Source of the DNA: Candidatus Magasanikiibacteriota bacterium
GTDB taxonomy: Bacteria > Patescibacteriota > Patescibacteriia > Magasanikbacterales > GWA2-37-8
Direction: 5' to 3'
DNA length: 64,000 nt
Assembly: GCA_041678665.1 (NCBI GenBank)
Contig: JBAYNU010000002.1
Coordinates: forward strand, 5,039-69,038
Part shown: piece after piece, positions 6,156-57,801 of the stretch
Position numbering within the stretch: the stretch's first letter is position 1
Layout: every line of letters begins with the position of its first letter
The notes under the pieces: model-generated
Database searches by the model: none
Seen by the model: the letters and a program-made list of their open reading frames with translations, nothing else
What the model was told of the DNA's origin: nothing
Translations under genes and position numbers: made by a program

Positions 6156-6599
6156 ATGAAACAACAGCTGTTGATTCTGACGACGGCAGAGGAGAAGGCT
6201 GATCGGTTGAACCCCTTTCTCGGCTACTTGGCGAGATTCTTTGAGAGGCTGATATTTGCTTACGAAGAAGATGCCGCCAAGATTTCCCTGGCCGAGCGGC
6301 CGGATATGGTGTTATTTTTCTTCTTTGAATCCTCGCCGTACCAGGATCCCGAGTTCGCTCAAGGATGGAAGTGGCATACCATCGACCTGCTGAGGTGGAT
6401 ACGGAAGGGAGAGCAAGGGGAATGGGGACTCCATGTCCCTGTAGCCGTGATTAGGCACGAGGCCGGTCACGACCGGTGGGAAGATCAAATCACGGGAGAA
6501 TTGGGAAACTTTCTTCCCCCCGGGTTTATTCTCACCACCTCCGCTGGAGGGAACACGGCAGAAGAAATTCTTGCCATGCTGAATTCAATCCTCAAATAG
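6156..6599 (+). CDS. hypothetical protein encoded on a GC-rich island (about 50% GC versus under 40% in flanks)
   Basis: ORF 6144..6599. GGAGG SD is 4 nt before the second ATG at 6156. No recognisable family. Flanked by terminators. Confidence 0.5.
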   Translation: MKQQLLILTTAEEKADRLNPFLGYLARFFERLIFAYEEDAAKISLAERPDMVLFFFFESSPYQDPEFAQGWKWHTIDLLRWIRKGEQGEWGLHVPVAVIRHEAGHDRWEDQITGELGNFLPPGFILTTSAGGNTAEEILAMLNSILK

Positions 6600-16873: not shown

Positions 16874-17815
16874 ATGCACAGATTACCCTATCAGGACGAC
16901 TTTATTTTAAACCTGCGAGCAAACAACTTTTCCGAAGAAACCGCCTATAATTACGAGCGTGATTTGAATACTTTTGAATCTTTTCTTAATAACGATGTTA
17001 AAAAACCGTTTGAGGATGCTACCAAAACCGATATTTTGCGTTTCAAGGCCTATCTATCTTCCACTGACCGCAAAACTGCCACTGAACATCGTTCTAAACA
17101 AAAGCTAGGTAGTTTTTCTATCAACCGTATTTTATCGGCTCTGCGATCGTATCTAAAATTTTTAGAAGATATGGATCGTAAACCGCCCGTATCTTCGGCT
17201 ACGGTCAAATTATTAAAAACCGAGAAAAAGAACGCTCGAGTGCCAGAATTTGAGGAAATTATAAAAATAATCGAAGCGCCAACTAAGTATGAGGACGATG
17301 AAAAAGTCGCCCTACGTAATCGCGCCATGCTTGAGACACTTTTTGCTACCGGTATGCGCATTTCGGAGCTTTTATCGCTTCGGGTGCGTCAAATTGACCA
17401 AACCGGACGGGTATATATCATGGGAAAAGGGAAAAAACAACGATTTGCGTATCTCACTCCACGCGCTTTAGCCCATGTAAAAAATTATATCATCAAGCGC
17501 AACAGCACTTCGGAAATGTTATTTGTTCCCTACCGCGGACGAAATAGTCAAGAAAAGGACAAAAAAATCTCCGCCAATTATTTACAATTCAAAATAAAAC
17601 GTTACCGAGAATTGTTGGATGTAAATATTCCGGTGAGCGCACATACTTTACGCCATGCCTTTGCCACTTTTATGGCAGAAAAAGGCGCCAATCCGGCCGC
17701 TATTCAAATTTTGCTTGGTCACGAGTCTTTGGATACCACCACGCGCTATGTTCATGCTTCCGACAGATACGCGGAAAAAACTCACCACGAATTTCATCCA
17801 TTATTTAATAAATAA
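16874..17815 (+). CDS. xerD: tyrosine site-specific recombinase XerC/XerD family
   Basis: R...HxxR...Y catalytic motifs (LRHAFATFM...LGHESLDTTTRYVH). Confidence 0.85.
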   Translation: MHRLPYQDDFILNLRANNFSEETAYNYERDLNTFESFLNNDVKKPFEDATKTDILRFKAYLSSTDRKTATEHRSKQKLGSFSINRILSALRSYLKFLEDMDRKPPVSSATVKLLKTEKKNARVPEFEEIIKIIEAPTKYEDDEKVALRNRAMLETLFATGMRISELLSLRVRQIDQTGRVYIMGKGKKQRFAYLTPRALAHVKNYIIKRNSTSEMLFVPYRGRNSQEKDKKISANYLQFKIKRYRELLDVNIPVSAHTLRHAFATFMAEKGANPAAIQILLGHESLDTTTRYVHASDRYAEKTHHEFHPLFNK

Positions 17816-20405: not shown

Positions 20406-21980
20406 TTATGATATTAATTTTTTAATAGCTATTTTGATTCTGTTTATAGTTTCGTCTTTTTTCAGAACTTCAGCAATTTCAAATGGCCCCGGTGATTTAT
20501 CTTGTCCAGACAGGGCAACTCGCAGAGGCCATAAAATCTCTCCGTTATTATAATTATTTTCTTTAATCCACTCCCCTATTTTAATTTCTAAATCACTCTT
20601 ATTCCAAGATTGAACACTAAAAGTATTCAGCAACTCTTCTAGGCCCGGTAAAACTTTTGTCACAGTCTCCATATTACTCTTTTTCCATACCAAAAGCGAG
20701 CTGTCATATTCTGGTAATTCAAACACAAATGCTAATGCTTTCGGCAGCTCCGCGAGTGTCGCGACTCTTTCACGCTCCAATGGTAACGCCTTTGTTAGTT
20801 GTTCATTATTAATTGTTAATTTACTGGTTTTAAAAAAAGGTACCACTCTTTCCACTAAATTTTCTAACGGCAGGCGTTTAATATACTCTTTATTAAACCA
20901 ATCCAATTTTTCCAAATTAAATACCGCTCCGGATTTATTTACTTTGGCAAAATCAAATTCTTTAATCAAATCCTCTAAAGTAAAAAGCTCGCGATTGTCT
21001 CCCGGATTCCAACCTAAAAATGCTACAAAATTTATAACTGCTTCCGGCAAATAACCTTTTTTAATATAATCCTCCACCGCCACATCACCCTGGCGCTTGC
21101 TTAACTTGGATTTGTCGAAATTCAAAAGCAGGGGCAAGTGAGCGAATTCGGGCGGCTGCCAGCCGAAATATTTATAAAGCTGTAAATGTTTGGGAGTGCT
21201 GGAAATCCACTCTTCGCCACGACTGGCGACGGTAATCCCCATTAGATGATCGTCCACTACTACGGCCAAATGGTAAGTGGGAAAGCCATCGGATTTAATA
21301 ATTACCTGATCATCAACCAGCTCATTTTTTATTCTGATTTCCCCACGAATTAGATCATTAAAAACCGTTTCGCCGAATTTTGGCATTTTCATGCGAATAA
21401 CATGCTTTTCGCCGCCCGCGATACGTTTTTTGGCTTCCTGAGGATCAATGCCGGCGCATAAACCATCGTATCCGGTTGGTATTTTATTTTTCTGCTGCTT
21501 TTCTCGTAATTCCATTAAACGCTCCGATGAACAAAAACAATAATAAGCGTGACCTCTATCTAATAATTCCTGGGCATATTTTTGATAAATTTCCAAACGT
21601 TCAGACTGTATATATGGTCCACGTTTACCCACCTGCGCCACACAATTGTCATTCTGAGGCGCAGCTGAAGAATCCTTTTGGCTTTCAGGTGACAAGAGAT
21701 CCTTCCCTGAAGGGGTCCCTTTGGGATGCCCGCTCAGGATGACATTATCAGCGCTCTTTTTTAAAACTACGCCCTCATCTGGAACCAGGCCGGCCCAAAC
21801 TAAGGAATTTAAAATATTTTTTACGCCATCCTCGACAAATCGCTCGCGGTCGGTATCCTCGATACGCAACAAAAACTGTCCGCCGTGTTTCTTGGCGTAA
21901 AGATAGGCATACAAAGCCGTGCGCAAACCGCCAATATGCAAATAACCGGTGGGACTAGGAGCAAAACGAGTTCTAATCAT
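20406..21980 (-). CDS. gltX: glutamyl-tRNA synthetase carrying an in-frame insertion of about 33 aa derived from a palindromic repeat
   Basis: HIGG and KMSK class I motifs; 524 aa; insertion ...SPESQKDSSAAPQNDNCVAQVG... is encoded by repeat 21646..21745. Confidence 0.9.
   Translation of the reverse strand: MIRTRFAPSPTGYLHIGGLRTALYAYLYAKKHGGQFLLRIEDTDRERFVEDGVKNILNSLVWAGLVPDEGVVLKKSADNVILSGHPKGTPSGKDLLSPESQKDSSAAPQNDNCVAQVGKRGPYIQSERLEIYQKYAQELLDRGHAYYCFCSSERLMELREKQQKNKIPTGYDGLCAGIDPQEAKKRIAGGEKHVIRMKMPKFGETVFNDLIRGEIRIKNELVDDQVIIKSDGFPTYHLAVVVDDHLMGITVASRGEEWISSTPKHLQLYKYFGWQPPEFAHLPLLLNFDKSKLSKRQGDVAVEDYIKKGYLPEAVINFVAFLGWNPGDNRELFTLEDLIKEFDFAKVNKSGAVFNLEKLDWFNKEYIKRLPLENLVERVVPFFKTSKLTINNEQLTKALPLERERVATLAELPKALAFVFELPEYDSSLLVWKKSNMETVTKVLPGLEELLNTFSVQSWNKSDLEIKIGEWIKENNYNNGEILWPLRVALSGQDKSPGPFEIAEVLKKDETINRIKIAIKKLIS
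21646..21745. repeat. palindromic dispersed repeat, family A copy (TGTCATTCTGAGG...CTCAGGATGACA), in-frame inside gltX
   Basis: terminal inverted repeats plus internal GAAGAATCC core shared with copies at 44400, 45579, 47714, 55814, 57744. Confidence 0.7.
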
Positions 21981-26580: not shown

Positions 26581-26841
26581 TTACACAGCATGGCGATAAA
26601 TCTCATTAATAATCTCATAAAGATGCCGGGCTTCTTCGGCATCCTCTGCCGCTTTTTTTATAGCGGCATAGTTTTTTGCCGCTAGATTCTTCAGAATTTC
26701 CCCAGGGGACATCTTAATATTACGATCGTTATTGAGCATCGTCAAGATGAATGTGTCCCCTTTCTCCAGTTTTTGCCGCAAATATGGCAAATCTGTATAT
26801 AGCTCACAAGCCCTATTTATAAACTCTACTGGAAATTTCAT
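26581..26841 (-). CDS. hypothetical protein
   Basis: 86 aa ORF, no recognisable motif. Confidence 0.4.
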   Translation of the reverse strand: MKFPVEFINRACELYTDLPYLRQKLEKGDTFILTMLNNDRNIKMSPGEILKNLAAKNYAAIKKAAEDAEEARHLYEIINEIYRHAV

Positions 26842-42050: not shown

Positions 42051-43085
42051 TTAACTAGATAAGACACCTACTTCATCAAGTAAATCTTGGTCATCTAATA
42101 ACGCTCCAGAACCGCGCACCACCGAAGTAAGCGGATCATCGGCAATACGCACTGGGATTTCGGTAGCTCGAGAAATTAACTGATCCATACCCCGCAGTAA
42201 AGCACCGCCACCTGACAACAATAGTCCGCGCTCGTGAATATCGGCCACCAATTCCGGCGGCGCCACTTCCAAGGTGGCTTTAATATTGTCAACAATCGTT
42301 CGTAGCGATTTGATAATTGCTTCACGCACCTGCGCGTCGTTAATCATTATTTCTTTAGGTAACCCGGTTAATAAATCTCGTCCTCGCATTGGATATTCCA
42401 TAGTTTCTGACATTTCAATCGCCGATCCAATGCGAATTTTTATTTCTTCTGCCTGCCGTTCACCTAAAAGCAAATTAAAACTATCACGTGCATACTGCAC
42501 AATATTACGACAAAGTTCATCCCCAGCAACCTTAATTGATTTCCAAGTAACTACCCCTCCTAAAGAAATAATGGCTATCTCGGTTGTGCCACCGCCAATT
42601 TCTACAATAAAGTTGCCCACCGGTTCCTTGACCGGCATGCGACTCCCGATCGCGGCGGCCATTGGTTCTTCTACCACCCACACTTCCCTAGCACCAGCGT
42701 TTTTTACTGCGTCAGCCACTGCTTTACGTTCTACCTCGGTAATTTCAAGCGGAACACCGATAACGGCACGCGGCCGAGATAAAAAATTAAAACTTTCTTC
42801 AAAAACCTTACCAATAAAATAACGAAGCATCTTTTCAGTTACTTCAAAATCAGAAATAATTCCGCTAGTTAAAGGACGAGTGGTAGCAATATGGGGCGGG
42901 GTTTTGCCTAACATATCTTTGGCTTCGTTGCCCACTGCCAAAATTTGTTCAGTGCGCATATTTACCGCCACCACACTAGGTTCATTTATCACAATCCCTC
43001 TACCCTTTACATAAAAAAGAGTATTGGCTGTTCCCAAATCTATAGCTATTTCTTTTCTAAATCTACTGCCAAATTTTTTTAACAT
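42051..43085 (-). CDS. mreB: rod shape-determining protein MreB
   Basis: actin-fold ATPase, full-length MreB similarity. Confidence 0.95.
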   Translation of the reverse strand: MLKKFGSRFRKEIAIDLGTANTLFYVKGRGIVINEPSVVAVNMRTEQILAVGNEAKDMLGKTPPHIATTRPLTSGIISDFEVTEKMLRYFIGKVFEESFNFLSRPRAVIGVPLEITEVERKAVADAVKNAGAREVWVVEEPMAAAIGSRMPVKEPVGNFIVEIGGGTTEIAIISLGGVVTWKSIKVAGDELCRNIVQYARDSFNLLLGERQAEEIKIRIGSAIEMSETMEYPMRGRDLLTGLPKEIMINDAQVREAIIKSLRTIVDNIKATLEVAPPELVADIHERGLLLSGGGALLRGMDQLISRATEIPVRIADDPLTSVVRGSGALLDDQDLLDEVGVLSS

Positions 43086-43091
43086 AATACC

Positions 43092-43544
43092 TTAATATTC
43101 TAAATTACTATAACGTCGATTGGTAAAAATAACCGCCTCTAAAATAACAAATAAAACTACTAAAATTATTCCGTTCCACCAAGTTAACAATTTTTCTTGT
43201 AATAAAAACAAGGCAAAAATAATCAAGGTGGTAAAAATAACACTTTGGCGAAAAGTCTTTTTTACATGACGAAAAATAACCTCATCATTTTTTACAATCG
43301 CTCGCCGCACCAAAAATACTATTACCGAAAATGTACCGACTAACGCCAAAAATAAACTCAAATAAAAGAAAGCCAAGCCTAATGTCCCGGCGCTATTGGG
43401 ATCTAAACTCAAAATTACAAATACCCAAGTTCCCCAGCAAATCAAAGTACCTAGCGACATCAAAATTAAATATTGACGGAGGGTCATATGACATTGTTTA
43501 GTAAACTGTATTTTATCCCAAAATACCTTATTTGGCAAGACCAT
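43092..43544 (-). CDS. hypothetical membrane protein
   Basis: 150 aa, 3-4 TM helices. Confidence 0.4.
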   Translation of the reverse strand: MVLPNKVFWDKIQFTKQCHMTLRQYLILMSLGTLICWGTWVFVILSLDPNSAGTLGLAFFYLSLFLALVGTFSVIVFLVRRAIVKNDEVIFRHVKKTFRQSVIFTTLIIFALFLLQEKLLTWWNGIILVVLFVILEAVIFTNRRYSNLEY

Positions 43545-43567
43545 TAAATCACTCTAAATACTTACCG

Positions 43568-46500
43568 CTAAGCCCTAAATTCGCAAATATCCCTAAAATC
43601 ACATCGTCCACAAATAAATTGACTGGGGGTGGCGGCAAAATCACGAGCGTGAATACGCTGGATAGTTTCAAGCATTTTTTCTTGCACTGCGACAATTTCT
43701 TTTTCAGAACCAAAAAATGATATCTGGGAATTTTGGTTGAGATAATAAAAAGTTAATTTACTAACAACACCAATATGATAATATTCTGGAAGCGTTTTTA
43801 CAGCCAACTGGTAAATTAATAGCTGATTTTTGTCGTCGCTCGATAATTTTTCTTTACCTTTGCCGGTTTTGTAATCCACGATATGCAATGAGCCATCGGG
43901 TAATTGATCAATACGATCAATGCGACCGCTTACCGTGAACCCGCCAATTTTTATACGAAATGACCCTTCAAGTGTAACCGGAACTGTCCAGCCATTTTTT
44001 TCATTTTCTTCATAAAATTTTTTGAGCACTTCTTTGCCTTCGGTATAATAAGTGTCACGCTGACCCTTGCTTTCGTACCAATCATCAATCCAGTGTTGAT
44101 CGTAAATTTCCAACAATTCTTTAATTTCGGGTATTTTTAGGTTACCGGATTTTTTTAAGATCGTAATCGAACTGAACAATGAATCTTGGGTGGCGCTATT
44201 TAAAACGCGCGCGCGTTCATAAAATGCCTGTAAGGTTCCATGCATGCTTTGGCCAAAACTGAAATTAGCATTACCTTTGGTGGGTATGCCGACAACATTG
44301 GCCAGCTTGTATTGATACGGACAGGTAGAATATGAATTAAGCTGTGAATAAGAAAATCGTTCGGGGAGATGATAAATTGAATCAGAACGAACTTGATCAT
44401 TGTCATTCTGAGCGGAGCGAAGCGAAGTCGAAGAATCCTTTAAACTTTGCAATCGAAGGGATTCCTCCGCTCGCCCTGCGGGCTCGGTCGGAATGACAAA
44501 TTCACTTACTCCTTTTTCCTTGCTCCTTAATCCTTTCGCCTCGTATCCGAGCTCGCTCAAAAACCGACTGTTTTTTTTCTGTCGACTGCCACCATAATCA
44601 TCAGCACTGGTTAGATATAACTTTTCCTTAGCGCGGGTCATCGCCACATAAAACAACCTTCGTTCTTCTTCGATATGCTCGTCGCCTTCCGGTAATTGCT
44701 CTTTGATTAATTCAAAAGGAATTTCAATCGCTTCGGATCTCGCGCGCGATGGAAAACGTTCTTCCACCAAATTTACTACAAACACGTATTTAAATTCCAA
44801 ACCCTTGGAGCCATGAATAGTTAAAATATTCACCGAGTCAGGGGTATCCACCATTTGATGTAATGATCCCTTGTCGCCTGAATCCACAATGTAATTAAAA
44901 TGTTCCAAAAATCCAGATACGGTCGCGCCGGCTTCGGCGGTTTCATAAGCCGAAATATATTCCAAAAATTGCTTAAGCTGGTGAATTTGTCGAATGGCGC
45001 CGCGATTACCTGCTTCTTCTTGTTTTATTAAATAACTAAAATATCCACTTTCTTCCAACCACTCCACCAAAAGCGTGGTTGGTTTGCTATTACCAACCTT
45101 GGTTTGTCCAGTTTTAATCCAAGAAGTAATTTTTTGAGCAAGTTCAAATCCAGCAACGGATAAATATAATTCCGAAGCGCGCCTAAGCGACTCGAAATAG
45201 GAAACAGATTTCTTTTTGGCAAAAGAAGTTATTTTTTGGATATCCTCGGCTGGAAATTGTAAAAACGACAAATTTAACAAACGGAATATCGCGGTTGATT
45301 CGTGGTGATTATCTAATAATTTAAGAAAGTTGATACAGTCCAAAACAATGGGCTGACGATAAAGCCCGGCTGAAGCGATAAATTCGTATGGTATCCCCTG
45401 TTTTTCCAAAGCATTAATAAACGGATCGGCATGCGCGTTGGCTCTCACCAAAATGGCAAAATCATCCCAGGTCGCGCTTTCGTTGATGGTTCTGAGCCGC
45501 GCGATTTCGTCAACCACGCTTTTTACTTCTTCATCCAGTGTGGTAGAGTGAATGTGACAGACGCTCGCCGTTCGCGCGTTGTCATTCTGAGGCGTAGTCG
45601 AAGAATCCCTTCTACTTCGAACGTTAAAGGATCCTTCGCTTCGCTCAGGATGACAATTTGCGGTGAGTCGCTTATTTATTTTGAGCTTCACCTCCAACCG
45701 ATCCGGATTATTATTCTGAATAGATTTATATGCCAAATCCAAAATTTCCTGGCAAGAACGATAATTTTCATTAAGAACAATTTCTTTGGCCTGCGAATAG
45801 TCTTCTTTAAACCGTAAAATATTATTCACGCTGGCACCGCGAAAAGCATAGATTGACTGGTCATCGTCGCCAACGACGGTAAGCTGGTTTTCTTCGCCTG
45901 CAATCATTTGTACCAACTGGTATTGCGCCCAGTTCACATCCTGAAATTCATCCACCAAAATATATTTATAACGCTCGCGTAATAATTTCAAAATATTCGG
46001 TCGTTCACGCAATAATTTTATGGTGTAAAAAATCAAATCGCCAAAATCAAGCGCGCTGTTATCAAGAAGTAATTGATTATACGCGTGATAGGCGTTGGCG
46101 ATTTCGGAAAGGCGTTTAAAATCGACGGCGGCATTACTGTCATTCCCGTGAAAACGGGAATCCGCGACTTCTGGGGCAGATCCCCGCTTTCGCCTGCCTG
46201 CCGGCAGGCATGGCGGGGATGACAATGTAGAATCGCTGTCCAACTTCATCCCTTCCGCATACTCCAAATATTCTTGCGGTGTAATAAGTTCATCTTTACA
46301 TTTAGAAAAATGTTTTAAGAGTTCGTGAATATGCTTGGCTGGGTTTCCCAAAGGTCGATAATAATCCAAATCAAATTTATCTAAATTGCGCCGCACCAAA
46401 AGCCAAGCGTCGGTTTCGGTAAGTAATTTAAATTGATTAGGTAGACCAATGTCCAATCCATGATTTTCCAAAATCCGCTGGCAAAAAGCATGGAAGGTGG

Positions 46501-46756
46501 AAATTTGCATATCCACATATCCGAGCTCAAGCATTTCATCCACGCGCGTTTGCATTTCTCCGGCTGCCTTTTCCGTAAAAGTCAACGCCAAAATTTGCTC
46601 GGGAGTAGCGAGTTTATTTTCTATTAAATGTGTAATTTTTTGCGTAATTACCGTGGTCTTACCGGTACCGGCGCCCGCCACAATCAAAAGCGGGCCGGAG
46701 GCATATTCCACGGCCTGTTTTTGCGCGGGGTTGAGAGGGTATTTTGGCATAATCAT
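43568..46756 (-). CDS. UvrD/PcrA-family SF1 DNA helicase fused to C-terminal Cas4/RecB-type PD-(D/E)xK nuclease domain with Cys4 cluster; carries three in-frame repeat-derived insertions
   Basis: GAGTGKT Walker A; C-terminal GRIDRID, VDYKTGK, QLLIYQLA nuclease motifs and STCPY...CGRCDFRDIC cysteines; 1062 aa. Confidence 0.85.
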   Translation of the reverse strand: MIMPKYPLNPAQKQAVEYASGPLLIVAGAGTGKTTVITQKITHLIENKLATPEQILALTFTEKAAGEMQTRVDEMLELGYVDMQISTFHAFCQRILENHGLDIGLPNQFKLLTETDAWLLVRRNLDKFDLDYYRPLGNPAKHIHELLKHFSKCKDELITPQEYLEYAEGMKLDSDSTLSSPPCLPAGRRKRGSAPEVADSRFHGNDSNAAVDFKRLSEIANAYHAYNQLLLDNSALDFGDLIFYTIKLLRERPNILKLLRERYKYILVDEFQDVNWAQYQLVQMIAGEENQLTVVGDDDQSIYAFRGASVNNILRFKEDYSQAKEIVLNENYRSCQEILDLAYKSIQNNNPDRLEVKLKINKRLTANCHPERSEGSFNVRSRRDSSTTPQNDNARTASVCHIHSTTLDEEVKSVVDEIARLRTINESATWDDFAILVRANAHADPFINALEKQGIPYEFIASAGLYRQPIVLDCINFLKLLDNHHESTAIFRLLNLSFLQFPAEDIQKITSFAKKKSVSYFESLRRASELYLSVAGFELAQKITSWIKTGQTKVGNSKPTTLLVEWLEESGYFSYLIKQEEAGNRGAIRQIHQLKQFLEYISAYETAEAGATVSGFLEHFNYIVDSGDKGSLHQMVDTPDSVNILTIHGSKGLEFKYVFVVNLVEERFPSRARSEAIEIPFELIKEQLPEGDEHIEEERRLFYVAMTRAKEKLYLTSADDYGGSRQKKNSRFLSELGYEAKGLRSKEKGVSEFVIPTEPAGRAEESLRLQSLKDSSTSLRSAQNDNDQVRSDSIYHLPERFSYSQLNSYSTCPYQYKLANVVGIPTKGNANFSFGQSMHGTLQAFYERARVLNSATQDSLFSSITILKKSGNLKIPEIKELLEIYDQHWIDDWYESKGQRDTYYTEGKEVLKKFYEENEKNGWTVPVTLEGSFRIKIGGFTVSGRIDRIDQLPDGSLHIVDYKTGKGKEKLSSDDKNQLLIYQLAVKTLPEYYHIGVVSKLTFYYLNQNSQISFFGSEKEIVAVQEKMLETIQRIHARDFAATPSQFICGRCDFRDICEFRA
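44400..44499. repeat. family A palindromic repeat copy, in-frame inside the helicase gene
   Basis: TTGTCATTCTGAGCG...GAAGAATCC...CGGAATGACAA. Confidence 0.7.
45579..45656. repeat. family A palindromic repeat copy, in-frame inside the helicase gene
   Basis: TTGTCATTCTGAGGCG...GAAGAATCC...GGATCCTTC...CGCTCAGGATGACAA. Confidence 0.75.
46138..46225. repeat. family A variant copy (TGTCATTCCCG...CGGGGATGACA, internal GCCTGCCGGCAGGC palindrome), in-frame inside the helicase gene
   Basis: terminal IRs; related fragments at 36410-36480, 31320-31345, 46763-46790. Confidence 0.65.
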
Positions 46757-46892
46757 TACCTATCATTCCGATGAAAATCGGGATCTTTTACTATCGTATT
46801 TTACCCTACTTTCCGCTCATTGACAAGAAAACATTTTTATGCTAAAACAATACTATGTTTTCTAATCCAAACATCCAAGCAAGGAGAGAAAA

Positions 46893-47183
46893 ATGAAACA
46901 CAACGAAAGAGTCATCAATGCCGTGGTAATAGGGGCATTGATACTGGTATTCCTCCTGTGGTGGGGGCTAGCCAATGACTACGCGTCTTTTAAAAAGATG
47001 TGCGCGTTGTCAGAAGAAGCAGCTTGTCGTGAGGCAGGTTATGCTCCGCCCATCGTATGGAGCATGAATGAGAAAGCGCTCTTTTGCCATGACGACAAAG
47101 GGCTAAAACACCAAATAAAGATTCCAGCCTGCAACTGCAAGTTGGACCCTGGAGCGAAAGAATGCCGCTTCTTGAAAAAGTAA
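46893..47183 (+). CDS. hypothetical small secreted or membrane-anchored Cys-containing protein
   Basis: 96 aa, N-terminal hydrophobic helix, 6 Cys; strong AAGGAG SD; elevated GC. Confidence 0.5.
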   Translation: MKHNERVINAVVIGALILVFLLWWGLANDYASFKKMCALSEEAACREAGYAPPIVWSMNEKALFCHDDKGLKHQIKIPACNCKLDPGAKECRFLKK

Positions 47184-47186
47184 AAC

Positions 47187-47227
47187 AGACCGTGCAATCA
47201 GGGAGGATTGCACGGTCTCTATTTTTA
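47187..47227 (+). terminator. intrinsic terminator (copy 1 of a duplicated 52-nt segment)
   Basis: AGACCGTGCAATC-agggag-GATTGCACGGTCT 13-bp perfect stem followed by TATTTTTAT. Confidence 0.8.
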
Positions 47228-47303
47228 TATGATGGATCCTTTGTTTTACAATTTCTGACAATCAATATATAATATACTAAGCTCAAAATCATAGGAGGAA
47301 ATC

Positions 47304-47636
47304 ATGAAAAAATATAAATGGGCAGTAGTATATTTATTTTTGGTCTTGCTCTTTTGGCAACTCGGCAATTTATTAAATGCCCACACCGAAAAGCTCAAAG
47401 CAGGTTTCATACTTTCGCAAGAAGCTTTATCGCTCTATTGCTATCATCGCTTCGGCGATGAAAGTGAAAAAGTAATGATAACAATAGGCGACACACAGCT
47501 GGAAAAAAAAGATTATACGATGTGTTTTGTCCCGCGAGAAGGGGCTCTCTACTTTATTGTGAGCCTAAATCAATGTACGAACACGCAGGACTATGACGAC
47601 TGCATGTTCCTCACCGGGGCGGCGGAAGAATTTTGA
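47304..47636 (+). CDS. hypothetical small secreted or membrane-anchored Cys-containing protein
   Basis: 110 aa, N-terminal hydrophobic helix, 4 Cys; AGGAGG SD. Confidence 0.5.
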   Translation: MKKYKWAVVYLFLVLLFWQLGNLLNAHTEKLKAGFILSQEALSLYCYHRFGDESEKVMITIGDTQLEKKDYTMCFVPREGALYFIVSLNQCTNTQDYDDCMFLTGAAEEF

Positions 47637-47650
47637 GCATAGCTTCAAAC

Positions 47651-47692
47651 AGACCGTGCAATCAGGGAGGATTGCACGGTCTCTATTTTTTA
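47651..47692 (+). terminator. intrinsic terminator (copy 2, identical to 47187..47227)
   Basis: same 13-bp stem followed by T-run. Confidence 0.8.
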
Positions 47693-47713
47693 TATGATGG
47701 GTCATCTTCTCAA

Positions 47714-47796
47714 TTGTCATTCTGAGGAAGTGAAACGACCGAAGAATCCCTTAAATCACAAAGTCAAAGAGATCCTTCGCTTCGCTCAGGATGACA
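47714..47796. repeat. family A palindromic repeat copy (intergenic)
   Basis: TTGTCATTCTGAGG...GAAGAATCC...GATCCTTCGCTTCGCTCAGGATGACAG. Confidence 0.7.
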
Positions 47797-47948
47797 GACG
47801 GAGATGTCTCATATTATTTCGAAGTGGCATTTGTCATTCACTCCTAAAAGCTATCAGCTACAAGCTGTAAGCTACTGGATAAGGGCTTCGCCACATATAA
47901 ACATCGCTCGCTCAAAAATAAAAATAAATTTTTATTTTACTCACTCGC

Positions 47949-49733
47949 TTAGTTTATGAACCCGCCCGCCTGAATACTCCAAAGCTTCTTGTAAACACCA
48001 GAAGTTTTTTTGACCAAATCCGCGTGCGTCCCCTCTTCAATAATTCCGCCTTCGCCAATCACAATAATTCGATCCATTTTCATGATAGTAGATAAACGGT
48101 GCGCCACGGTAATCACAGTTTTGTTTTTCATTAGATTGACAAGCGCATCTTGAATCAGATGTTCGGATTCAGAGTCCAAACTGGAAGTGGCTTCGTCCAT
48201 AATAAGAATCGGCGCGCCCCGTAAAATCGCGCGCGCAATCGCCACGCGCTGACGCTCACCGCCGGAAAGTTTTACTCCCCGCTCTCCCACAAAAGTATTA
48301 TATCCTTCGGAAAATTCGGATATAAACTCGTGACAATGCGCGAGCCGCGCGGCTACAAATACTTCTTCGTCGGTCGCGTCAAATTTTCCGTAACGAATAT
48401 TTTCCATTAAACTGCGATGAAATAAAATTGGATCCTGGGGCACATAGCTTACTGCCGCCCACAAACTTTCCAGTTTAACATCGGTGATATCATTCCCATC
48501 AATCAAAATCCGACCGCTGTCAATATCATACAAGCGCAACAATAATCTGGTAATGGTGGTCTTGCCGGCTCCCGACGGCCCCACAAACGCTACCTTTTCA
48601 CGCGAACTAATAGTCAAAGAAAAATCATTCAACACGCGCCGAGTTTCATTATAGCTAAAACAAACCTTATCAAAAACCACTTTCCCGTCTGTCGCTTGTA
48701 AATTTTTCGCTCGCGACTTATCCGCCACACCGTGCGGGGTTTTGAGAATTTCGGTCATCTCTTCGGCGTCGGCCATTTCTTGAAAAATATGGCGCATCAC
48801 CTTGCCGAAATCCCAAATCTTCATAAAAACGATAATCACATAGGATTGCAGTAATACAAAATCGCCAATTGTAAATTGTCCGGCTTGCCATAATTTTAAT
48901 CCATAGTAAAAAGCCACAAATTCCAAAATAAAAATCAAAAAACCCTGAACCGCTTCCACAGTATTATTGATATTCCAAGAGAACTTGCGCAAACGACGTA
49001 ATTTATCCAGCGCTACATCAAATAGACTGGTTTCTTTATTATAACCACCAAATAATTTTACATTGGTTTGGTTGGTAATGGTGTCTGCCAAAATAGCGGT
49101 AGTGGCCGACTCGGCTTCACTGCGTCTGATATCATAGGGCATCTTGAACTTAATCAATAGCCAATTGACGGTAAAAAATAAAGCTAACCACGCCAACATA
49201 ATATAACCCAAAAGATGACTCTTAAAAAATAACACCGCGATGACGACTGACAAGTTTATTACCAAAGGCAAAAGATTATATACCAGTCGATCCGCCAAAC
49301 CTTCAAACGCGCGTGTAAACCAATTAACCCGTTTTACCAAAGAACCCACAAAACTGCTGTTAAAAAAAGCGTAGGAATGCAAATGAAGATACCTAAAACA
49401 GGTATTGGCCAAATCCTTGAGCATCCAACTCTCCAAACTTACCAAAGTAAAAGTTTGGATGCGCCAAAACGCCCAATGTGTGAAATTGAGCGCTAAAATA
49501 ATAAGCAAAACAAACAATAAGGCATCAATAGAATTATTTTGACCAATTGATAAAATATCAAAGAATTTCTTGTAATACAGTGGAATAATCACATCAAATA
49601 CCGAAGCAAAAATTGTAGACAAAAATACCACTATCCCAAGCCAAGGATAGCGTTTTAGATGCTGCCAGTAAATTTTCATTGTCAATTTAGTATTATTTTG
49701 CATAAAATTTAGGAAAACACGACAAATCCGCAA
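47949..49733 (-). CDS. ABC transporter, fused permease/ATPase exporter (MsbA-like)
   Basis: 6 TM N-terminal domain; Walker A GPSGAGKTT, LSGGERQRVAIARA signature, Walker B ILIMDEATS. Confidence 0.9.
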   Translation of the reverse strand: MRICRVFLNFMQNNTKLTMKIYWQHLKRYPWLGIVVFLSTIFASVFDVIIPLYYKKFFDILSIGQNNSIDALLFVLLIILALNFTHWAFWRIQTFTLVSLESWMLKDLANTCFRYLHLHSYAFFNSSFVGSLVKRVNWFTRAFEGLADRLVYNLLPLVINLSVVIAVLFFKSHLLGYIMLAWLALFFTVNWLLIKFKMPYDIRRSEAESATTAILADTITNQTNVKLFGGYNKETSLFDVALDKLRRLRKFSWNINNTVEAVQGFLIFILEFVAFYYGLKLWQAGQFTIGDFVLLQSYVIIVFMKIWDFGKVMRHIFQEMADAEEMTEILKTPHGVADKSRAKNLQATDGKVVFDKVCFSYNETRRVLNDFSLTISSREKVAFVGPSGAGKTTITRLLLRLYDIDSGRILIDGNDITDVKLESLWAAVSYVPQDPILFHRSLMENIRYGKFDATDEEVFVAARLAHCHEFISEFSEGYNTFVGERGVKLSGGERQRVAIARAILRGAPILIMDEATSSLDSESEHLIQDALVNLMKNKTVITVAHRLSTIMKMDRIIVIGEGGIIEEGTHADLVKKTSGVYKKLWSIQAGGFIN

Positions 49734-49761
49734 AGGCGGATCGTTATATAATTATATAATC

Positions 49762-49986
49762 TCATTCGCTCAGAAATGTCTTTGTAAACAAAGCCACTTC
49801 TTCGCTCACTGCTATTATAGATGACGCGATAAACAAAAAAATGTTACAGTGGTAACATAAAAATTTGGACGCTAATCCATTCTCAAGACAAAGTTTATTA
49901 TTTTTCGCTGCAACCGCACCCGCAGCCATTGCCGCACTTGCAACAATGATAGCACACCGACTCTTGACAAGCGCAGCGGTCATCAT
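49762..49986 (-). CDS. ORF of 74 aa (Ala-rich N-terminus, hydrophobic C-terminus). Frame is ambiguous with the Cys-rich 42-aa ORF at 49898..50026.
   Basis: listed in ORF track; its third-codon-position composition fits the genome better than the alternative frame does. Confidence 0.2.
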   Translation of the reverse strand: MMTAALVKSRCAIIVASAAMAAGAVAAKNNKLCLENGLASKFLCYHCNIFLFIASSIIAVSEEVALFTKTFLSE

Positions 49987-50026
49987 CTTTTTCCAGAGGC
50001 ATGTTGCATTCTACGCATTTTTCCAT
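49898..50026 (-). CDS. alternative-frame 42-aa Cys-rich peptide MEKCVECNMPLEKDDDRCACQESVCYHCCKCGNGCGCGCSEK (11 Cys)
   Basis: hand translation of minus strand; overlaps the 74-aa ORF in another frame; no clear SD. Confidence 0.25.
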   Translation of the reverse strand: MEKCVECNMPLEKDDDRCACQESVCYHCCKCGNGCGCGCSEK

Positions 50027-50169
50027 ACAAAGAAGGAATAAAGAATAAGGATTAAGGAATAAACGAACACAAAATATATTTACTCCTTAATTTTTATTCC
50101 TTACTCATTATTATACCACAACCAAAAAACCCGGCAATACAACCGGGCTTTCGTGTCAAGTAGGGTAAA

Positions 50170-50604
50170 TTATTGGCTCTTGGGGAGACGCTTGTACTTC
50201 TTTCCAACATTAATGCGGTTCATTTCGCGATCAATCACGGCTTGTAAACGGGCATAATCCACATCTTGAACATTTTTGATTTTTTCCATTTGTTCCTGTG
50301 CTCTTTTATGGGCTTCCTGCGCCCTCGCGACATCAATTTCTTCTACCCGTTCAGCATTATCGGCCAAAATAACAATTTCGTTATTACCGCGCACTTCCAA
50401 AAATCCACCGGCCACGGCAATTGGATGATCCCCCGCTTTATCCACAATACGCATCTCCCCGGCTTTGAGAACGGAAACAAGCGGAATATGATTGGGCATA
50501 ACCGTAATTTCACCGTCCATGGTGGGGATGGTTACTTGCGTTACTTCGGTATTTTCGTAAACCACCTTTTCGGGGGTCGCTATCTTAAATCTTAGATTTG
50601 ACAT
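50170..50604 (-). CDS. atpC: F1 ATP synthase epsilon subunit
   Basis: beta-sandwich plus C-terminal helices; last gene of the atp operon. Confidence 0.85.
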   Translation of the reverse strand: MSNLRFKIATPEKVVYENTEVTQVTIPTMDGEITVMPNHIPLVSVLKAGEMRIVDKAGDHPIAVAGGFLEVRGNNEIVILADNAERVEEIDVARAQEAHKRAQEQMEKIKNVQDVDYARLQAVIDREMNRINVGKKYKRLPKSQ

Positions 50605-50673
50605 ATTTATTTACGATACACGATACATGGAAAATGATACATTTGTATATTATTCCATGTATTTTGCATGCTG

Positions 50674-52065
<1,392 letters not shown>

Positions 52066-52434
52066 TTAAGAGTTGGTTTTAAGATAATTAATAATATGAT
52101 CTAAAAATAATTTTCCTTTCTCGATATCATCATCTGTAGTCCGATCTGGATCGCGCTTAGGCATCGCTTGGACAAACTCGATAAAATTTTCACACTCACT
52201 TCGTATTTCTGTGCTAAGTGTTTGGTCCCTTCTTAATAGACTTACTATTTCTGACGCAATACTCGAAAACCAAGCACCACGACATCTATAATTATAATAA
52301 TTAGGATGGTCTGGTTTTAAAATCTCCGACGGTATATCATCTGTCCACTTTCTGTCATCCCGTAACTCTAGGATATTCTCCAAAACTTGTTTTCTGATTA
52401 ATTCGACCGGGTATCCTTGGGTTTCTGTGCTCAT
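52066..52434 (-). CDS. hypothetical protein inserted between atpG and atpD
   Basis: 122 aa, acidic, no recognisable family; not a canonical atp operon member. Confidence 0.5.
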   Translation of the reverse strand: MSTETQGYPVELIRKQVLENILELRDDRKWTDDIPSEILKPDHPNYYNYRCRGAWFSSIASEIVSLLRRDQTLSTEIRSECENFIEFVQAMPKRDPDRTTDDDIEKGKLFLDHIINYLKTNS

Positions 52435-53425: not shown

Positions 53426-53797
53426 TTACGATACACTTTCTATTTTTTCTTCTAATTTATCTATTGTCACCCAAATCATTTTTCCTATTTCATTAGACAT
53501 TTCCAAACCGACATTATATTCATCTTTACTAATCCAGTTCTGAATAAACGCGAAATATATTATATACTTACATTCTTGCGACGAACCATGTGATATCTCA
53601 TAAAAATTTAACTTAACTTTGTCTCGCCTACGCGCGTATCCCTCAACATAATTCAACATTATAGACATTGATGCTCGGCGCAACTGCGAACTAACGCCAT
53701 ACAATTCATTACTTGGAAAATTTTTCACTATCTGATAACAGTATAAAACGAATCTATTAATTTTATTTTTCAACAATACATGAAATTTTCCCTCCAT
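53426..53797 (-). CDS. four-helix-bundle protein (23S rRNA intervening-sequence protein family) inserted between atpA and atpG
   Basis: LRRASMSIMLNYVEGYARR...HGSSQECKYIIYFA core matches the TIGR02436-type four-helix-bundle family; flanked by inverted repeats. Confidence 0.75.
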   Translation of the reverse strand: MEGKFHVLLKNKINRFVLYCYQIVKNFPSNELYGVSSQLRRASMSIMLNYVEGYARRRDKVKLNFYEISHGSSQECKYIIYFAFIQNWISKDEYNVGLEMSNEIGKMIWVTIDKLEEKIESVS

Positions 53798-53828
53798 ATA
53801 AATTTGTATATTTTTCCATGTATATTGT

Positions 53829-55813: not shown

Positions 55814-55915
55814 TTGTCATCCTGAGTGAGCGAAGCGAATCGAAGAATCTGTGATTATTCGCCGATAAATTCTTCGACTTCATTCACCTTTGGCTCATTT
55901 CGCTCAGAATGACAA
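55814..55915. repeat. family A palindromic repeat copy, atpF-atpH intercistronic
   Basis: TTGTCATCCTGAGTGAGCGAAGCGAATCGAAGAATC...GAATTCTTCGAC...CGCTCAGAATGACAA. Confidence 0.7.
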
Positions 55916-57743: not shown

Positions 57744-57801
57744 TTGTCATCCTGAGTGAAACGAAGGATCTAGATTCTTCGACTACGCCTCAGAATGACA
57801 A
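57744..57801. repeat. family A palindromic repeat copy (short form), exactly fills the atpZ-atpB intercistronic gap
   Basis: TTGTCATCCTGAGTGAAACGAAGGATCTAGATTCTTCGACTACGCCTCAGAATGACAA. Confidence 0.7.

Follow-up and report, generated by a model that had tools for sequence, protein, structure and literature searches.

Two adjacent orphan genes for small cysteine-containing proteins, each followed by a near-identical predicted terminator, at an exporter-helicase junction of a Candidatus Magasanikbacteria contig

We analysed a stretch of 64,000 nucleotides (the window) that is part of a 94.6-kb contig (ENA ERZ27247350 k141_1703092) of a metagenome-assembled genome (MAG) of Candidatus Magasanikbacteria, within the candidate phyla radiation (CPR/Patescibacteria). 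Two short open reading frames (ORFs), here called ORF1 and ORF2, lie side by side in it between the genes for a helicase and an ABC exporter, and each is followed by a copy of one and the same hairpin-bearing module. The reading that we favour, with moderate confidence, is that the pair is a lineage-specific insert of two independent foreign single-gene units, in which the terminator module was copied locally. Though the insert is real, it amounts to rather ordinary accessory DNA, an islet of orphan genes with a locally duplicated terminator.

The order of genes at this locus is conserved in relatives and runs from the ATP synthase operon through a tiny Cys-rich ORF, the ABC exporter, the helicase and a small membrane protein to MreB-MreC-PBP2. 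The relatives' loci are labelled L002, L003, L004, L005 and L018, and the best helicase relatives are at most 62% identical. With no gene between them, the exporter and helicase genes are adjacent and co-directional in L003, L005 and L018 (314, 169 and 20 nt apart, respectively), and ORF1 and ORF2 were absent from the exporter-helicase junction in six relatives. The ORF pair is thus a lineage-specific insertion, carried on the strand opposite to that of its neighbours, and not a pair of conserved core genes, a possibility that the initial annotation of this DNA had named. A TTGTCA...GTAAAAT motif, which forms the helicase promoter in the window, also precedes the helicase ATG in L002, L003 and L005. 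Since this promoter is conserved with relatives, everything from it up to the exporter stop codon is extra, which gives an insert of ~1.1 kb (46826 to 47949).

The junction is not empty in all relatives, as L002 and L004 carry unrelated 218-aa genes at this position. The gene in L002 (301-957, minus strand) is preceded by AGGAGG, has its own terminator, lies on the opposite strand and has a GC content of 56%, against 45% for its locus. The gene in L004 (3321-3977, plus strand) is AT-rich (33.5%) and encodes a hydrophobic N-terminus. Judged from the sequences of these loci, the junction would be a recurrent landing site for foreign genes in the clade. The ORF pair resembles horizontally acquired genomic islets at synteny breaks in being absent from relatives, in its atypical composition and signals, in lying on the opposite strand with its own promoter and terminator, and in sharing its junction with another GC-rich gene, that of L002, which also has a Shine-Dalgarno (SD) sequence. 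It differs from such islets in its small size and in having no mobility gene, tRNA, flanking target duplication or identifiable donor.

Each of the two genes would form a unit of its own, consisting of a sigma-70-type promoter, a leader with a perfect SD, a short ORF and a terminator 0-11 nt past the stop codon (Table 1). Sigma-70-type promoters were scanned for across 9 kb (43000-52000), and the ORF2 promoter was the top match in this region. The putative ORF1 promoter was missing from the output of the scan because the final base of its -10 box is C instead of the consensus T. While the initial annotation had assigned a promoter to each gene, this was borne out for ORF2, whereas ORF1 has only an imperfect candidate. 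The remainder of its description, namely ORFs with six and four Cys residues, hydrophobic N-terminal helices and strong SDs, agreed with the ORF list, the Cys counts, the hydropathy values given below and the SD sequences found ahead of each ATG.

The SD sequences set the two genes apart from their surroundings. Comparisons of SD, GC content and GC content at third codon positions (GC3) were made with the 49 long ORFs of the window, using longest-ORF starts. None of these had an SD of at least 5 nt at a spacing of 4-10 nt, the sole exception being a borderline AAGGA whose spacing is exactly 10 nt, and the housekeeping genes of the relatives L002-L005 had no SDs. A start-independent scan for an SD followed by a start codon and an ORF of at least 40 aa, outside the long genes, returned four places only: ORF1, ORF2, 6156-6599 and 26841-26581. 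All four are small orphans without a Pfam domain, and their GC3 ranges from 0.41 to 0.62, against 0.379 +/- 0.064 for host genes. In several genes of the window and of the relatives (by eye, uncounted), a -10 box lies only 7-12 nt upstream of the ATG, so that their mRNAs may be leaderless. About half of Parcubacteria are without the 16S anti-SD motif (Tsurumaki et al. 2022, PMC9297842). The contrast between SD-less host genes and leadered, SD-led, GC3-rich orphans could help to recognise CPR genes that were acquired recently or are translated in a special way, and it raises the question of whether such CPR ribosomes still read SDs.

With regard to composition, the initial annotation had described both ORFs as more GC-rich than the flanking genes. 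This was the case for ORF1, whose GC content of 47.4% is at the 98th percentile of the 49 window genes and whose GC3 of 55.7% is 2.8 standard deviations above the gene mean of 37.9 +/- 6.4%, but not clearly so for ORF2 (GC 41.1%, 73rd percentile; GC3 45.9%, +1.3 standard deviations). Codon log-likelihoods per codon were low for both (0.04 for ORF1 and 0.105 for ORF2, against 0.32 +/- 0.12 for chunks of real genes), and fell below the real-gene 5th percentile of 0.113. For each ORF the annotated frame was the best-scoring of the six. The SD contrast, together with the GC3 and codon usage of ORF1, favours horizontal acquisition from an SD-using, unsampled source. A possible alternative to foreign origin is a native minority class of specially translated, SD-dependent genes.

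The sequence that follows both genes had been reported as an identical 52-nt terminator. The repeat and its hairpin and T-run are real; its limits had to be redrawn, and the copies now span about 56 nt and are near-identical. They are 100% identical across 44 nt (47183-47226 = 47647-47690), after which copy 2 has one extra T and both continue as TATATGATGG(A/G)TC. Overall identity is ~96%, the differences being one homopolymer indel and one substitution. A match of this kind was found in 0 of 100 shuffles, and the similarity ends sharply at both edges. The stem is a perfect 13 bp with 7 G-C pairs and a 6-nt loop, and folding energies were -24.6 kcal/mol for copy 1 and -25.1 kcal/mol for copy 2 (z of -6.1 and -5.4). 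Copy 1 begins on the final base of the ORF1 TAA, and copy 2 begins 11 nt past the ORF2 TGA. By its stem, its T-run, which was picked up by the terminator scan, and its position, the module is predicted to be an intrinsic (rho-independent) terminator. Copy 1 carries a second T-run, on the minus strand, and may therefore terminate bidirectionally.

Known rho-independent terminators, including bidirectional ones that separate convergent or divergent genes, likewise have a G+C-rich stem and a T-run directly 3' of a stop codon. Unlike ordinary terminators, the module recurs near-identically after two adjacent unrelated genes, extends 12-15 nt past the T-run, and has a T-run that starts only 3 nt after the stem (CTA TTTTT). 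We searched for it in ~79 kb of the contig (the 64-kb window and a further ~15 kb reached via flanking genes) and in three public collections, the GTDB species representatives, the JGI metagenomes and IMG/VR, from all of which the MAG itself is absent. Within the ~79 kb there are two copies only, both at this locus, with none in the ~15 kb beyond the window; the stem pattern with a free loop retrieved just unrelated chance palindromes from the three collections, which do not include the MAG. It is thus not a common terminator, the other outcome that the initial annotation had foreseen, and as far as the ~79 kb shows it would be a locally copied intrinsic terminator and no genome-wide element. 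Dispersed repeats of the repetitive extragenic palindrome (REP) or miniature inverted-repeat transposable element (MITE) type have many copies, whereas the module has two adjacent ones, against at least seven of an unrelated palindromic repeat of the window, family A.

As a direct repeat, the two copies enclose just one self-contained promoter-ORF2-module unit, and their starts are 464 nt apart. The hairpin terminators of the 6156 and 26841 genes and of the L002 junction gene are unrelated to the module. That the module is ~96% identical while the flanking and intervening DNA is unrelated indicates recent, local copying.

Table 1. Positions of the genes, signals and repeats discussed, in window coordinates.
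Feature	Position	Strand	Description
Helicase promoter TTGTCA-17-TAAAAT	46798-46826	-	From the promoter scan; left edge of the insert
Putative ORF1 promoter TTGACA-17-TAAAAC	46820-46848	+	Spacer ends TGC (TGn extension); read by eye
ORF1 SD AAGGAG	46881-46886	+	ATG 6 nt downstream
ORF1	46893-47183	+	96 aa; NCBI hypothetical protein WCX97_01035
Predicted terminator module, copy 1	47183-47238	+	Hairpin 47187-47218, then CTATTTTT
ORF2 promoter TTTACA-17-TATAAT	47245-47273	+	11/12 consensus positions
ORF2 SD AGGAGG	47293-47298	+	ATG 5 nt downstream
ORF2	47304-47636	+	110 aa; NCBI hypothetical protein WCX97_01040
Predicted terminator module, copy 2	47647-47703	+	Hairpin 47651-47682, then CTATTTTTT
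Family-A palindromic repeat	47714-47796	.	Between module copy 2 and the end of the exporter gene; -33 kcal/mol
SD-led ORF	6156-6599	+	147 aa; TTGACA-17-TACTGT, GGAGG SD, GC-rich terminator
SD-led ORF	26581-26841	-	86 aa; TG + perfect TTGACA-17-TATAAT, AAGGAGG SD, hairpin terminator
Family-A repeat copies	21648-21743, 44402-44448, 45581-45654, 47714-47796, 55816-55913, 57746-57799		GTCATTCTGAGG ... GCTCAGGATGAC

We then considered whether the two proteins are related. BLASTP of ORF1 against ORF2 gave a weak alignment of the hydrophobic N-terminal helices and nothing beyond, and the two units showed no DNA similarity in their coding or promoter parts, so that the module alone is duplicated. All four Cys residues of ORF2 align without gaps, at an offset of +9, with Cys 37, 65, 82 and 91 of ORF1 (C-x27-C-x16-C-x8-C). 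The probability of such a shared register by random placement is about 4e-4, for a register that was spotted post hoc, and the predicted strands of the two AlphaFold2 (AF2) models roughly coincide at this offset. When the Cys columns were left out, the alignment was no better than those of shuffles (z = -0.04), and MAFFT favoured other registers in alignments that were unstable. The predicted mature parts are oppositely charged, with isoelectric points (pI) of 8.6 and 4.55. On these sequence comparisons, paralogy of ORF1 and ORF2 is possible, though we lean against it.

These results bear directly on an old tandem duplication, according to which the two genes would be divergent paralogues of one gene-plus-terminator unit, with fast-evolving domains on a Cys scaffold and with terminators kept alike by conversion or selection. 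The Cys register, the similar order of secondary structure elements in both models and the weak alignment of the N-terminal helices are what such a history would leave behind, and they have to be set against the shuffle-level similarity outside the Cys columns, the other registers chosen by MAFFT, the post hoc nature of the Cys register and the failure of a phmmer search with ORF1 to find ORF2. The module itself poses a further difficulty: it is a neutral tract of 56 nt that has stayed ~96% identical while coding similarity was wholly lost, and an old gene-plus-terminator duplication cannot explain this without continuous gene conversion. We consider an old tandem duplication unlikely, though it deserves a serious hearing. 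The suggestion that the arrangement arose as a duplicated or acquired cassette was hence only partly upheld, as duplication of the whole cassette is not supported, the module alone being shared, and acquisition is supported by the SD contrast and by the GC3 and codon usage of ORF1.

ORF1 and ORF2 are complete orphans in the databases searched. They retrieved only themselves among 5.8 billion protein clusters, and a full phmmer search of 1.84 billion representatives with ORF1 matched ORF1 alone. Neither had a match in Pfam, NCBIfam, PHROGs, PADLOC or PDB sequences, and nothing relevant was found among IMG/VR proteins or by tblastn of GenBank phages and PLSDB plasmids. In a blastn search with the whole 1.2 kb, the sole match was a 35-nt family-A arm in Planktothrix plasmids, and neither Rfam nor tRNA scans of the window gave a hit. 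Single-sequence AF2 models of both proteins start with a helix, which is followed by another helical segment and four to five strands; the mean predicted local distance difference test (pLDDT) score was 69 for ORF1 (helix 3-47, then five strands) and 63 for ORF2. Remote homology and structure prediction, which the initial annotation had proposed, brought no match.

CPR/Patescibacteria genomes are rich in small, lineage-specific hypothetical proteins that are secreted or anchored in the membrane and that form no defined family. ORF1 and ORF2 share with them a short length, an N-terminal hydrophobic helix, the lack of a Pfam domain and a site between housekeeping blocks. They differ from them in being SD-led and leadered in an SD-less lineage, in being orphans even among the 1.84 billion representatives (ORF1 search), and in showing a common Cys spacing, the C-x27-C-x16-C-x8-C pattern described above.

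The N-termini of both proteins are consistent with export. ORF1 (Cys at positions 37, 45, 65, 80, 82 and 91) starts with a positively charged n-region, MKHNER, followed by 18-20 hydrophobic residues, and its Kyte-Doolittle maximum over 19 residues is 2.25. The sequence G-L-A/N (GLA↓ND) fits the A-x-A rule at -3/-1, and the long h-region could alternatively serve as an anchor that stays uncleaved. In ORF2 (Cys at positions 46, 74, 91 and 100) the helix is signal peptide-like, with a positively charged MKKYK, ~13-15 hydrophobic residues and a maximum of 1.49, and L-N-A↓H (LNA↓HT) is a marginal fit to the cleavage rule. A lipobox, L-(A/S)-(G/A)-C, was not present at the end of the signal peptide of ORF1 or of ORF2; the first Cys is residue 37 in ORF1 and residue 46 in ORF2, well past the hydrophobic segment in each case. 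A lipoprotein reading was rejected for both on this ground. The type IV pilin or pseudopilin motif G↓(F/M)xxxE before the helix is absent from both ORFs, and a pilin reading was rejected for want of a class III signal peptide, although the ORF1 model is a long N-terminal helix followed by a beta-sheet.

For the favoured reading of two foreign units with a locally copied terminator, we infer export, disulfides, horizontal transfer and the route of module copying as follows. The units would most likely have been acquired horizontally from an unsampled donor or a mobile element. The module would then have been copied recently and locally, by recombination, template switching, unequal exchange, or single-crossover integration of the ORF2 unit via the module. 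The products would be exported by Sec and then either released by cleavage at the sites given above or anchored by their N-termini. The rest of each product would be a 69-84-residue helix-plus-sheet domain outside the cell, which is probably disulfide-stabilised. The modules may insulate the foreign genes, and copy 1 especially may keep transcription and antisense read-through from the essential helicase and ABC genes. As to biological role, our guess is that the proteins are presumably surface or secreted accessory factors of an episymbiont. In such an organism, the two genes may offer a minimal case of how exported proteins built on a disulfide scaffold diversify.

Several observations weigh against this reading. 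The composition of ORF2 is inside the host range, the -10 box of the ORF1 promoter (TAAAAC) is imperfect, and ORF1 is absent from the ENA gene calls. The low codon scores would suit young or non-coding ORFs equally well. The structure models are of low confidence and match nothing. The count of module copies covers ~79 kb of the contig, and the 16S rRNA gene is outside the window. As no donor or homologue was found in any database searched, horizontal transfer is argued from signals and composition only.

Part of this evidence could also be accommodated if one or both ORFs were non-functional, that is, if they had arisen by chance, or very recently de novo, in an intergenic spacer that has expanded. 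The lack of homologues, codon scores under the real-gene 5th percentile and the missing gene call for ORF1 would all be expected. However, two ORFs of 96 and 110 codons that share a strand and do not overlap would not be, nor would a perfect 6-nt SD 5-6 nt from each ATG in an otherwise SD-less genome, a terminator of about -25 kcal/mol within 0-11 nt of each stop codon, an annotated frame that is the best of six, or a charged-then-hydrophobic start in both products. We judge this explanation quite improbable. Much the same standing is given to the module as a recombination site or mobile mini-element, with the units as integron-like captured cassettes or the module as a terminating MITE/REP-type element. 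A direct repeat around one 464-nt unit is the geometry of single-crossover integration of a circle, and the exporter-helicase junction repeatedly takes foreign genes in the clade. Yet no integrase gene lies close by, and the one tyrosine recombinase of the window is Xer-like (16874-17815) and 30 kb off; both ORFs have their own promoters; the two copies in ~79 kb have no counterparts in GTDB representatives, JGI metagenomes or IMG/VR; and the three other SD-led inserts end in unrelated terminators. Integron cassettes, like ORF1 and ORF2, are short ORFs each trailed by the same palindrome-bearing module, head to tail. An integron cassette array proper was rejected, since neither IntI nor attI is present, no attC core sites (RYYYAAC / GTTRRRY) were seen at the module ends on reading them, and ORF2 has a promoter that is near consensus; an array of merely two cassettes is a further difference.

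A more ambitious version would give the module the part of a joint in a small cassette system driven by recombination. Self-contained promoter-SD-ORF-terminator units for hypervariable exported proteins on the shared Cys scaffold would be swapped or added through it, with SD-dependent expression in an SD-less CPR lineage. If true, an episymbiont could diversify its surface or effector proteins in this way, and we regard it as very unlikely. The least probable of the explanations, and one to which we give hardly any credence, is a bacteriocin or toxin with its immunity partner, secreted through the adjacent ABC transporter; the initial annotation had named bacteriocin/immunity and toxin-like peptides among its candidates. 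Two small Cys proteins with hydrophobic N-termini and oppositely charged mature parts that adjoin an ABC exporter would fit such a pair. The exporter, however, consists of ABC_membrane and ABC_tran only (Pfam), with no C39 peptidase; it is conserved beside the ATP synthase operon and helicase in L003, L005 and L018, which do not have the ORFs, and it is transcribed convergently with ORF2. Neither N-terminus has a double-glycine (GG/GA/GS) leader, and no matches were found in Pfam, NCBIfam, PADLOC or PHROGs. Neither the proposed role nor a functional link to the exporter is supported by these results.

The two further SD-led genes of the window were inspected along with the ORF pair. The 6156-6599 ORF, which has rpsI on one side and a gene for a polysaccharide flippase on the other, has a GC content of 52% and a GC3 of 62%, the top of the window, and has the look of a further foreign insert. 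Contig L015 of the Logan assembly SRR6484787 contains it too. That contig and a second one from the same source, L013, encode proteins identical to the S4 and a 341-aa protein of the MAG, so that the same species appears to have been sampled independently. The 26581-26841 ORF lies between a putative ClpB-like gene and a glyoxalase-family gene, and its NCBI annotation is of a 52-aa version only.

The repeat of family A at 47714-47796, noted in the initial annotation, is real. Matches to its arm numbered 14, against 2.5 expected by chance, and at least seven copies are present in the window. Several lie in frame within the helicase gene, yielding peptides such as CHPERSEGS and SLRSAQNDN, and make the helicase ~80 aa longer than in relatives. 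The 35-nt arm mentioned above has a 91% match to genes on Planktothrix plasmids. The leader of the helicase gene, which lies between the conserved -10 box and the ATG, is ~40 nt long (46750-46803, minus strand) and contains a hairpin at 46765-46784. The same box is only 8-11 nt from the ATG in L002, L003 and L005, where the gene is apparently leaderless.

On the far side of the ABC exporter, between its gene and that for the ATP synthase epsilon subunit, lies an ORF of 42 aa with 14 Cys (MEKCVECNMPLEKDDDRCACQESVCYHCCKCGNGCGCGCSEK; 49898-50026, minus strand). It has no Pfam match; one possibility is a mini-protein that binds metal and is linked to the exporter. A 43-aa counterpart that is 58% identical occupies the same position in L003 (4619-4750), and another Cys-rich mini-ORF is found at the equivalent position in L004 (1152-1298). 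The ATP synthase operon contains two extra genes, at ~52060-52430 and ~53440-53810 according to the gene tables of L001 and L016. One, of 123 aa, is 23S_rRNA_IVP/bAvd-like, lies between atpA and atpG and is also present in L003 (2242-2616); the other, an uncharacterised gene of 122 aa, lies between atpG and atpD.

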